A stretch of DNA of 64,000 nucleotides from a virus. Its lineage: Duplodnaviria; Caudoviricetes. The DNA lies in IMG/VR virus record IMGVR_UViG_3300021978_000001, positions 373,491 to 437,490 of that record, one strand, 5' to 3'. Positions 27,740-35,162 of the stretch are shown in pieces (position 1 is the first letter of the stretch; every line of letters begins with the position of its first letter). The notes below the pieces were generated by a model, which saw only the letters and a list, made by a program, of their open reading frames with translations, was not told the DNA's origin and ran no database searches. The translations under genes were made by a program, and so were the position numbers.

Positions 27740-27768
27740 TTGACCGTCAAGGTCCTGTGGGGTACTAT
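27740..27768 (+). promoter_or_regulatory. sigma70-like promoter with inverted repeat over -35
   Basis: TTGACC-N17-TACTAT; CCTTGAC-C-GTCAAGG palindrome. Confidence 0.6.
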
Positions 27769-27852
27769 AGTGCACCAGCTTGGGCATGAGTCCCTATGGG
27801 GTGCTCAAGTGGTTTTGCCGGACCAAGAAGGAAGAGGGGAGAACATGACAAC

Positions 27853-30785: not shown

Positions 30786-31427
30786 ATGAGGGACAACGAC
30801 AGCTACATCTATCGCAAAGGCACCACGCCCAACACGCGTATCGCGATCAGCCAGAAGAACAAGCTCTACTCGGTGGCGCGCGGCCAGACTGCGTTTAGCC
30901 AGGTCGGGCTCGTGTCGAGCTTCGGGTTGAGCGAATCGCGCGCTGTGGACGAGGTGCGTGGGATGGGTTACGGTGATCAGATCGCAGAACTCGTGCCCGG
31001 AGTCACCGGCGCCATGAGCATCTCGGTCAGCCGCACCTTGCTCTATCTCGCAAACATCTACCAGGCCATGGGATACGCTGCGGGCATTGACGGCCTCGTG
31101 CGAAGCCTCAAGCACCACCAGTGGCCCTTTGACCTCAAGCAAGAGCTGGTGTTCTCGCGCATCGCCACCAACTCGCAGAACAACCCCAAGCTCACGGTCC
31201 CCTCTTCGGATGGGGTCAACGAGGCACTCCTCGTGTTCTTCGAGGCTTGCTGGATGGAGTCCTACTCCGCCAACTACGCTTCGGACGCGGCGATGATCTC
31301 GGAAGACGTGGGCATCAAGGCTACCGACGTGATCGACGGTACCTCGACCTACGGCGAGCTTGCTTCCGATGCAGAGTCCACGGGTAACAACCCGTTCTCC
31401 GAGATCGGTTCGCTTCGCTACGGCTAA
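30786..31427 (+). CDS. putative tail tube protein
   Basis: VG.VSSFGLSESRAVDEVRGMGYGDQIAELVPG...SISVSRT...FEACWMESYS.NY; size and pattern of myovirus tube proteins. Confidence 0.65.
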   Translation: MRDNDSYIYRKGTTPNTRIAISQKNKLYSVARGQTAFSQVGLVSSFGLSESRAVDEVRGMGYGDQIAELVPGVTGAMSISVSRTLLYLANIYQAMGYAAGIDGLVRSLKHHQWPFDLKQELVFSRIATNSQNNPKLTVPSSDGVNEALLVFFEACWMESYSANYASDAAMISEDVGIKATDVIDGTSTYGELASDAESTGNNPFSEIGSLRYG

Positions 31428-31443: not shown

Positions 31444-31487
31444 AAAAAAGCCCGCTCTCCTACAAAGAGAGCGGGCTTTTCTTTTTT
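31444..31487. terminator. bidirectional intrinsic terminator
   Basis: AAAAAAGCCCGCTCTC-CTACAAA-GAGAGCGGGCTTTTCTTTTTT between tube gene (+) and solitary CRISPR repeat (-). Confidence 0.9.
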
Positions 31488-31512
31488 CGGGGATGTTTGC
31501 GTGGTAACGAAT

Positions 31513-31541
31513 CGGACCATCCCCGCGCATGCGGGGAAACC
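31513..31541 (-). CRISPR. solitary type I-E CRISPR repeat (cassette 1)
   Basis: Minus strand GGTTTCCCCGCATGCGCGGGGATGGTCCG; CCCCGC/GCGGGG hairpin; no second repeat within one period. Confidence 0.9.
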
Positions 31542-31584
31542 TTTGATACAACCTGTCACACCTTACAACACCGAACTTCGCGTT

Positions 31585-31640
31585 CCTGTACCGAGTCAAA
31601 GGGTACCTCGACTTGACACTACCTGTCAAGTGTTATTCGA
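31585..31640 (-). promoter_or_regulatory. CRISPR cassette promoter copy 1 with 8-bp inverted repeat
   Basis: TTGACA(31629-24)-N18-TACCCT(31605-00); ACTTGACA-N5-TGTCAAGT; 49/56 identical to 32398..32453. Confidence 0.8.
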
Positions 31641-31844
31641 GGCTCTTCTCCTCACTATCATCTCTTTCCCTGAGATCAAGCGCAAGACCGAATCTGCGAC
31701 GGTGCGGCGACGGCCATCATCGAAGCAGACATGCGCGCCGTTGTCATCATCCCCGAGAAGTGTTCCCATGCCGTACTCGGGGTGAAGTACGCGATCTCCG
31801 CGAAACCACCAAGTTCTTTGTACGAGCGTCGTGTCTTTTGTCAT
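31626..31844 (-). CDS. small SH3-like protein (DUF3553-like)
   Basis: AAGGA RBS; GDRVLHPEYGMGTLLG...VCFDDG.RR; stop lies inside the -35 of promoter copy 1. Confidence 0.65.
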   Translation of the reverse strand: MTKDTTLVQRTWWFRGDRVLHPEYGMGTLLGDDDNGAHVCFDDGRRRTVADSVLRLISGKEMIVRRRASNNT

Positions 31845-31855
31845 GGCGCTTCCTT

Positions 31856-32115: not shown

Positions 32116-32327
32116 TATCCTCGCCCCGCACACGCGGGGAACACTGGTCAATGTCTGAGCGCACGATCTCAGTGATCGGACCATCCCCGCGCACGCGGGG
32201 AACACGGTGAGGGCTGGAGCCGTCACGAGGTGGACATCGGACCATCCCCGCACGCGCGGGGAACACATCTGGTCCCAGGTCTCGGGTGTCCAGTTCACCG
32301 GACCATCCCCGCGCACGCGGGGAACAC
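32116..32327 (-). CRISPR. type I-E CRISPR array 2: 4 repeats, 3 spacers of 32 nt
   Basis: Repeats at 32299-32327, 32238-32266, 32177-32205 and degenerate 32116-32144; 61-bp period. Confidence 0.97.
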
Positions 32328-32453
32328 TCTTCAAATGTCCAGTTCCGTAAGTCCTCGGATTCTTTACAGAATCCTCGAACCCTCGCGAACCCGCTTCCCT
32401 GTACCGACTCGAAAGGTACCTCGACTTGACAGGTCGTGTCAAGTGTTATTCGA
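32328..32453 (-). promoter_or_regulatory. CRISPR leader plus promoter copy 2
   Basis: Leader ends TTTGAAGA before GTGTTCCCC; GGATTCT-N4-AGAATCC inverted repeat; TTGACA-N18-TACCTT; ACTTGACA-N5-TGTCAAGT. Confidence 0.85.
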
Positions 32454-32697
32454 CGACTTTTCCATCACTCGCAGGGATGAACACCCCCGGCCCGCGTTCG
32501 AGCACGGCGAAAAACCCCTGCTCGCCATTATGGACCCCCCTGTGCGCGGGATGGTTACGGAAAGCGACGCGTCGGCCTTTCGAGCCATCCACGGTCACGT
32601 CGATGCGGCATTTGGTGCCAGGTCCGATTTGGGCCATGTACGTGTCGGGGTCGATGATTTTGTGGCCGTAGGTGTTCGTGCCGTCTTCGTTCGTCAT
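32446..32697 (-). CDS. hypothetical protein
   Basis: GAGGA RBS; own class I promoter; stop abuts promoter copy 2. Confidence 0.65.
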   Translation of the reverse strand: MTNEDGTNTYGHKIIDPDTYMAQIGPGTKCRIDVTVDGSKGRRVAFRNHPAHRGVHNGEQGFFAVLERGPGVFIPASDGKVVE

Positions 32698-34363: not shown

Positions 34364-34703
34364 GCGGTCGCACGCGCTCCAGCTTCACGTCATCCTGGTG
34401 CACGAGTACGCGCTGTCCTTCCTGGCGTTGGATCTCCCAGCACGCCCATTGCACATCCTTGTAGATGGATTCACACAGGTTCTTGACCTGGTTATAGGCT
34501 TCCTTGCCCTCCTGATACCAGAGACGGTCCATCGAATCCGAATCGAAGAGAAGATAGGTACGCCTCTCTTCGGGCTGAAACCCGTGCGCCTTGTATGCTG
34601 CGTCCGGCGTATCATGCTCGGTTAGATGAATCGTGAGCTTGGTTTGTGCCAGCCCATCCTCCTGTTGCTTTATCGTACCCATTTTCACACTGAGCCATGT
34701 CAT
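34332..34703 (-). CDS. 123-aa hypothetical protein directly downstream of array 3
   Basis: AGAAGGA SD begins immediately after terminal repeat; ATG 14 nt downstream. Confidence 0.7.
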   Translation of the reverse strand: MTWLSVKMGTIKQQEDGLAQTKLTIHLTEHDTPDAAYKAHGFQPEERRTYLLFDSDSMDRLWYQEGKEAYNQVKNLCESIYKDVQWACWEIQRQEGQRVLVHQDDVKLERVRPLNDPEPRLAP

Positions 34704-34717
34704 GGTTGTTTCCTTCT

Positions 34718-35162
34718 GGGGCTATCCCCGCGCATGCGGGGAATGTCGTTTCGCGCGTAAACAGGGCATCGAGCCATCCCCACAGATGTGGGGAACATAG
34801 GAGGCGAGCGCCAACATGAGACCAGATCCTCGGACCATCCCCGCACATGCGGGGAAAACATGTCCATATTCTCACCAATGAGTGAGGGCGAGCCATCCCC
34901 GCATGCGCGGGGAACACGGGTATACCCGGTATAGGAGGTATTCCTGGAATAGGGCCATCCCCGCATGCGCGGGGAACACAAAGAGTGGTGCGTGCGCGGT
35001 TCCAGACCCACCGGACCATCCCCGCACGCGCGGGGAACACGACAGCAGCGCCCACACGGGCATCACACGCCCCGGACCATCCCCGCGCATGCGGGGAACA
35101 CTCCGTCAATGAGGTCAGCATCCGCCCATATTGCGGACCATCCCCGCGCATGCGGGGAACAC
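34718..35162 (-). CRISPR. type I-E CRISPR array 3: 8 repeats, 7 spacers (32,32,32,33,29,32,23 nt from leader)
   Basis: Repeats at 35134, 35073, 35012, 34951, 34889, 34831, 34770, 34718 (29 nt each); degeneracy increases away from leader. Confidence 0.97.

Follow-up and report, generated by a model that had tools for sequence, protein, structure and literature searches.

What does a phage do with a single CRISPR repeat that has been furnished with a promoter and a terminator of its own? The question is raised by a locus in the window, the 64,000-nucleotide stretch analysed here, which covers bases 373491-437490 of a 437,490-bp marine phage record (G000) with terminal repeats. The original prediction had read at this locus a promoter, a leader of about 50 nt, one repeat, 32 nt and a bidirectional terminator, and had proposed that the resulting RNA is either a decoy of the RNA anti-CRISPR (Racr) kind or a regulatory guide of the CreA/CreR kind. 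The layout is confirmed on the minus strand, and its elements and immediate neighbors, in coordinates of the window, are the following:

30786..31427, plus strand: convergent gene for a 213-aa protein, the anchor for finding relatives and sister strains
31446..31480, both strands: strong bidirectional intrinsic terminator (hairpin and T run), shared with the convergent 213-aa gene
31512-31481, minus strand: 32-nt guide-like segment, a piece of an allele of a gene termed here gene X, by ungapped in-frame alignment
31541-31513, minus strand: solitary type I-E repeat of 29 nt, with its 6-bp hairpin CCCCGC/GCGGGG and 8-nt handle intact
Between the -10 box and the repeat, minus strand: leader of about 52 nt, read directly from the sequence
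31605-31600, minus strand: predicted -10 box TACCCT, of the TANNNT type, 18 nt past the -35 box; six array leaders read TACCTT
31629-31624, minus strand: -35 box TTGACA, read directly from the sequence and overlapping the stop of the 73-aa ORF upstream
31611..31631, minus strand: operator-like palindrome CTTGACA-N5-TGTCAAG, covering the -35 box
31542..31656, minus strand: inserted cassette of promoter and leader, with paralogues among the leaders of true arrays and missing in sister strains
31626..31847, minus strand: upstream 73-aa ORF, whose final ~10 codons come from the inserted cassette

The unit sequence is concordant in three assemblies of the source sample (the IMG record, the ENA scaffold L031 and the Logan contig X1), and misassembly is therefore ruled out. 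The TTGACA box recurs at identical spacing before the neighboring arrays B and C and four more arrays; a strict sigma-70 scan left the predicted promoter of the unit uncalled, its -10 box agreeing with TATAAT at only three of six positions. Palindromes similar to that over the -35 box are also seen elsewhere: the array B leader (32424-32444) has arms identical to those of the unit, several array promoters have a palindrome of the CTTGAC-N-GTCAAG type across their -35 box, and related ones are found in the leaders at genome positions 23280 and 110731. These palindromes may constitute an operator for a common regulator.

The repeat matches the consensus of the arrays of this genome in both hairpin and handle, departing from it at positions 2-3 (GGTTT versus GTGTT), and its handle, ATGGTCCG (31520-31513), is the commonest in the genome (20/54). 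The earlier claim that exactly 32 nt separate the repeat from the terminator stands only if four A-U pairs are counted as part of the stem, and the G+C stem begins at nt 37 in the unit and at nt 38 in canonical crRNAs; the linked claim that 32 nt is the spacer length of the other arrays is borne out as a modal value, 40 of the 54 spacers of this genome being of that length. There is no second repeat, or remnant of one, 3' of the 32 nt. The terminator, called on the plus strand by the scan, has a 14-18-bp hairpin that folds as 18 bp in the minus-strand RNA, and an Rfam search returned only sub-threshold terminator look-alikes. The anatomy is consistent with the predicted crRNA-shaped product of Cas6e, comprising the 8-nt handle, the 32 nt and the terminator hairpin, and in the predicted fold of this 3' product the guide segment is unstructured. 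In the minimum-free-energy fold the leader pairs with both handle and guide, a feature that was given little weight: the pairs are G-U-rich, and the same leader end is conserved before unrelated spacers.

The promoter and leader of the unit are akin to those of the true arrays of this phage. The segment 31579-31656 is 79% identical to 32392-32469, which comprises the promoter and first part of the leader of the four-repeat array B; a 22-nt leader motif around the -10 box has three copies in the window, against zero expected, and seven in the genome, six of which precede true arrays. Likewise, the final 20 nt before the solitary repeat correspond, with 2-3 mismatches, to the "short leader" end of four arrays. 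The junction of leader and repeat reads ATCAAA/GG in the unit versus CTCAGA/GT in functional arrays. Neither the leader motif nor relatives of Cas6e gave matches in scans of IMG/VR, phage GenBank records held no near or distant match to the unit, and a repeat-pattern search recovered only two small unrelated viral contigs. As a separate observation, an unrelated 20-kb viral contig (L030, 4566-4753) bears a four-repeat I-E mini-array with two spacers of about 20 nt and one of 32 nt, followed by a terminator-like hairpin.

Where this cassette came to rest is evident from comparison with other populations. Contigs sharing the identical 213-aa protein, which is found on at least five contigs, were used to obtain sister strains from four other marine metagenomes in Logan, and their flanks are ~90-99% identical to the window. 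In all four, window positions 31486-31656/31680 are swapped for ~384-400 other letters, which encode a different C-terminus of the 73-aa ORF and then gene X, a 114-aa Cys-rich protein whose gene stops at the shared terminator, itself identical in sequence. The order of the sister operon is the array B leader, array B, an 85-aa ORF, the 73-aa ORF and gene X. Along the alignment, the window tracks the sister strains to the end of the 73-aa ORF, enters the leader-like cassette and the repeat, re-enters gene X for 32 nt, and then skips to the last bases before the terminator. Identity to the nearest sister strain is 98.8% in one flank and 95% in the other; the left junction has little or no microhomology, and at the right junction AAAAG is common with the sister pre-terminator sequence. 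The 3' part of gene X is missing in the window, and no copy of gene X is present anywhere in the carrier genome. The cassette form was found in the source sample only, whereas gene X is kept in all four other populations. A cassette of promoter, leader and single repeat has therefore replaced gene X at this exact site.

More distant relatives in IMG/VR, in which the 213-aa neighbor is 51-88% identical and synteny holds on both sides, have at this site no repeat, no gene X and neither array B nor C. Thus, the suggestion that related phages might have a longer array here, simply deleted in the present one, falls away: the sister strains have gene X, and the distant relatives have neither that gene nor an array. 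One relative, G001, has I-E cas genes and many arrays elsewhere in its genome. On its plus strand (27752-27780) lies a long-type leader end with one repeat of degenerate handle, followed after about 40 nt by an ORF, and modules of a leader plus a single repeat therefore recur in this phage group.

The 32 nt between the repeat and the terminator are a spacer-length, in-frame piece of a gene-X allele. They align without gaps and in frame to gene X from a codon boundary (offset 189), with an identity of 24/32 to the allele of L032, the first 14 nt being exact, and of 22/32 to those of L033 and L034; none of 5000 shuffles equalled this match. The last 18 nt by themselves are 10/18 identical in register, which was equalled by 33-107 of 5000 shuffles. 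The encoded peptide, IRYHANIPEK, compares with IRYHACMPDK and IRYHAHLPDK in the sister alleles and with ISYHAKLPRK and IRYHARLNYQ in distant marine homologues. Compared with the nearest allele, the 32-mer differs at nt 15, 21, 27 and 30, which are third codon positions, within a single hypervariable codon (16-17) and at the junction nucleotides 31-32. Derivation of the last 18 nt from the sister 3' UTR was also considered; it needs 4-5 gaps, and the ungapped in-frame alignment was preferred for its third-position differences and the distant allele L036. The 32-mer is, at 75% identity to the nearest allele, much more diverged than the flanks at 98.8% and 95%; its source, like that of a spacer, is therefore another allele and not simple decay in place.

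Gene X itself (L032 5713-6057 and L034 3460-3804, both minus) codes for 114 aa with eight conserved Cys/His positions. The two sister alleles share 84% identity, and one of their two most variable parts is the stretch to which the guide corresponds. The family is tiny and known from marine contigs only: HMMER recovered three distant marine homologues on short contigs, a word-based protein search returned only the query itself, and no relatives were found in JGI metagenomes and IMG/VR. Pfam assigns it to no family, the only hit being a weak Fer4-like match (E = 0.0065) below the cut-off. A codon-degenerate pattern for the guide peptide recovered no allele in JGI metagenomes and IMG/VR, and the data searched held no gene-X allele matching the guide perfectly.

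Given this origin of the 32-mer, we favor, with about an even chance of being right, the reading that the unit is a one-guide crRNA unit of the phage's own type I-E system, directed against gene X of related phages. Under this proposal, the leader promoter would drive an RNA of about 150 nt, which the phage Cas6e would cleave after the hairpin; the 3' product, predicted at 75-80 nt, with its 8-nt handle, 32-nt guide and a terminator hairpin replacing the usual repeat hairpin, would then be loaded into the phage Cascade. Together with Cas3, the complex would be aimed at relatives that co-infect and have a matching gene X; in the known alleles, the flank is AAC. The carrier would be spared by its own guide because gene X is absent from it and the repeat sits in the PAM position. 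Several features of the sequence speak for this proposal: the genome encodes the cas genes of its own system, the promoter and leader end of the cassette recur before true arrays, the hairpin is intact, and the handle and the 32-nt length are the modal ones. So does the comparison of strains, with gene X standing at the site in sister strains, the 32-mer coming in frame from another allele, and the carrier being devoid of gene X.

Other features weigh on the opposite side. The known alleles of gene X mismatch the guide at 8-10 of 32 positions, which, by the rules of the E. coli I-E system, would permit seed binding at best and not cleavage by Cas3. The trinucleotide immediately 5' of the matched segment is AAC in all known alleles; in E. 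coli, 17 of the 64 trinucleotides support interference by the I-E system (PMC6568314). That the solitary repeat ends in G while the known alleles have C at -1 argues against canonical acquisition from an AAC-flanked protospacer. Further, with a second repeat missing, the complex would go uncapped by Cas6e, and as the event is recent, the intact state of the elements is no evidence of selection.

These points bring in the principal rival, namely that the unit is an inert scar of a recombination or deletion between a CRISPR leader-repeat module and gene X, with an RNA devoid of role and a 32-nt length due to chance; the event may itself have resulted from a CRISPR attack or from an escape from self-targeting. 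We consider this possible, if on the whole unlikely. The state is derived, recent and strain-specific, only short microhomology is seen at the two junctions (AAAAG at the 3' one), modules of leader plus single repeat are mobile in this phage group (as at 27752 of G001, before an ORF), the repeat has two substitutions at its 5' end, and the guide is mismatched to every known allele, all of which accord with a scar. Against it, the borders of the gene-X piece are those of a spacer: it starts right after AA-N and is 32 nt long, and by a rough estimate each of these coincidences would arise by chance about once in 20-30 cases. Moreover, the piece comes from an allele other than that of the nearest sister strain, which a simple in-place deletion does not account for. 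Recombination between a spacer and its protospacer has reportedly been described by Varble et al. in 2019 (Nat Microbiol) for staphylococcal host arrays and phages. An event of that type would give a repeat directly abutting target-gene sequence, as is seen at the unit; here, in contrast, both partners would be phage DNA and the remainder of the target gene is missing. The loss of the 3' part of gene X means that a single spacer-protospacer crossover does not explain the origin of the unit.

The proposal of a one-guide unit presupposes a system to serve it, and the phage has one. Its genome encodes Cas3, Cas7, Cas6e, Cas5 and a Cse1-Cse2 fusion, about 45 kb from the unit when counted across the genome ends; a search for Cas1 and Cas2 in the phage genome found none. 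The Cse1-Cse2 fusion is a single 725-aa protein (genome 13651-15828, minus), cas6e lies at genome 17051-17776 on the minus strand, and CRISPR arrays stand between the cas genes. About 78 repeats of the same type are distributed over ~17 loci of the 437-kb genome, all on the minus strand. The stem occurs in the compensatory form CCCCAC/GTGGGG in 14 repeats, indicating at the sequence level that the hairpin of the phage's repeats is subject to selection. The last base of the repeat varies (G 28, C 18, T 8, A 0), which, by analogy with E. coli, may reflect position -1 of the PAM; no PAM could be derived from targets, as no spacer of this genome, of the sister strains or of G001 matched any genome compared. 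The repeat is equally uninformative as to the host, being present in many Actinobacteria and one Burkholderiales MAG.

This endowment bears directly on the earlier proposal of a Racr decoy, whereby a host type I-E system whose repeats are similar would have its Cas6e and Cas7 sequestered by the leader and hairpin. Like the solitary repeat units of Camara-Wilpert et al. 2023 (PMC10651486), the unit has one repeat downstream of a predicted promoter in a phage and is expected to yield a small non-coding RNA; its predicted promoter lies 52 nt upstream, where that definition allows up to 250 bp. The ~52 nt before the hairpin could also fit ~8-9 copies of Cas7, as in RacrIF1 (PMC10651486), and many bacteria have repeats of this type. 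Solitary repeat units, however, lack association with cas genes and inhibit the system of the host (PMC10651486), whereas this element is far from cas-less: its genome has matching I-E effector genes and some 16 further loci with the same repeat. A decoy would thus compete with the ~54 spacers of the phage's own effector, and the use of the same repeat by that effector therefore makes a self-poisoning decoy unlikely. Further, every true array already makes an identical leader-plus-hairpin by-product, and the decoy would leave the gene-X origin of the 32-mer unexplained; that the 32 nt downstream of the repeat are traceable to a protein gene is a further difference from the solitary repeat units. 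We accordingly regard the decoy as highly improbable.

The companion proposal was a CreA/CreR-like regulatory guide, by which Cascade with the unit RNA would repress a promoter through partial complementarity. The likeness lies in a degenerate mini-CRISPR yielding a single guide-like RNA for Cascade (CreTA; bioRxiv 10.1101/2024.01.05.574328), here a crRNA-shaped RNA with its own predicted promoter, and a possible sign that the unit itself is regulated is the operator-like palindrome spanning its -35 box. In contrast to CreA/CreR (bioRxiv 10.1101/2024.01.05.574328), no partially matching promoter was found in the genome. The 32-mer has no match better than chance in the 437-kb genome, the best over its full length having 11 mismatches, and a single 11/12 seed match, against about two expected by chance, is devoid of a PAM-like flank. 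The neighbors of the unit are the 73-aa ORF and the convergent 213-aa gene, with neither a toxin-like small ORF nor a cas operon or its promoter adjoining, and the unit is missing from the sister strains. The chance that it is such a regulator seems to us very slim.

A further rival takes the leader and one repeat for a minimal array, an empty acceptor awaiting spacers from Cas1-Cas2 of the host. Its main support comes from arrays B and C (window 32119-32327 and 34718-35162): the sister strains L032-L034 have arrays at both loci, with other spacers and other numbers of repeats, so that spacers are gained somewhere despite the want of cas1 and cas2 in the phage. These observations together imply spacer turnover by an outside route, such as host Cas1-Cas2 or recombination. 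The acceptor reading nevertheless does not explain the gene-X-derived 32-mer and its length, and the leader-repeat junction of the unit is unlike that of functional arrays; we give it very little credence. A different mode of array growth is suggested at genome 25917-25948 and 28873-28904, where one spacer occurs in two diverged copies within two arrays of similar leaders, a configuration that points to duplication of whole array cassettes.

Several repeats in other parts of the genome also depart from the canonical array. The terminal repeats at window 32116-32144 and 34703-34746, and at genome 17788, 23017, 25472, 30919 and 110408, have kept the hairpin and lost the handle, and they lead directly into the ribosome-binding site and ATG of the next minus-strand gene; thus, these arrays are 5' UTRs, and cleavage by Cas6e would make the 5' ends of mRNAs. 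At genome 120213-128072 and 148854, single or paired repeats stand among or within tRNA and tRNA-like genes: for example, at 127018-127079 one repeat is followed after 32 nt by a tRNA-Met, and the repeats at 128044 and 148854 interrupt tRNA-shaped sequences. A tRNA with a CUA anticodon (an amber suppressor, labelled Pyl by ARAGORN) lies at 120038-120110, with a promoter and a degenerate repeat about 100 nt upstream.

Returning to the one-guide unit that we favor, its closest counterparts are the mini-CRISPR arrays carried by the viruses SPV1 and SPV2 and involved in interviral conflicts (Medvedeva et al. 2019, PMC6858448). As in those, a virus genome carries a leader with a promoter and a single guide akin to a gene of close viral relatives, and the target is at or next to the position of the array while the orthologous locus of the carrier is deleted; more generally, such arrays are aimed at neighboring genes of sister viruses, genes that the carrier has itself lost or has in mutated form (PMC6858448). 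There are also differences: the virus-borne mini-arrays have one or two spacers flanked by repeats and borrow the effector of the host (PMC6858448), whereas the unit has one repeat and an intrinsic terminator for a 3' end, comes with the phage's own Cascade and Cas3, and, unlike them, sits exactly in the place of the target gene. Also, the spacer-protospacer pairs of SPV1 and SPV2 are 100% identical (PMC6858448), as against 22-24/32 for the unit and the known alleles of gene X.

Compared with a canonical type I-E crRNA, the unit has the 29-nt hairpin repeat, the 8-nt handle, a ~32-nt spacer and the matching Cas6e and Cascade genes, and differs in having a terminator hairpin where the canonical crRNA has a 3' repeat hairpin bound by Cas6e. 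Mini-arrays in phages have reportedly been noted by Faure et al. in 2019, as cited by Medvedeva et al. in 2019. With respect to the aberrant 3' end, an engineered I-E crRNA (Semenova et al. 2015, PMC4499155) provides a parallel, in that its 3' end is set by a hairpin and U-tract and not by a Cas6e cut in a second repeat, and crRNAs with such a terminator-made 3' end are functional in E. coli even without Cas6e (PMC4499155). In that construct, one hairpin acts as both terminator and repeat hairpin, and transcription starts at the 5' end of the crRNA (PMC4499155), whereas the unit is predicted to have a 5' end made by Cas6e and uses an unrelated, pre-existing gene terminator, with the stem GCCCGC versus CCCCGC.

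The exact replacement of the target by its guide allows a more specific, and in our view rather unlikely, elaboration of the one-guide reading: the unit might be a natural "homing guide", whereby Cascade-Cas3 would cut gene X of a sister phage in a mixed infection, and repair from the genome with the cassette would copy the cassette into the rival. The near-identity of the flanks on both sides would suit the cassette-bearing genome to the role of repair template. If true, this would amount to the logic of a CRISPR gene drive or of phage homing endonucleases, arisen naturally.

What sets the unit apart from the known mini-arrays and solitary repeat units is thus the combination of one repeat, a terminator 3' end, a phage-encoded effector and a location in the place of the target. 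Even as no more than a scar, it is a record of recombination between CRISPR modules and their targets within phage genomes. If the unit works, one repeat and a terminator would suffice for a natural type I-E guide, and huge phages with their own Cascade would be aiming it at strain-specific genes of their closest relatives. It would also provide a testable case of a guide that has replaced its own target, one that bears on the origin of solitary repeats in phages and on whether gene conversion between co-infecting phages can be driven by CRISPR.
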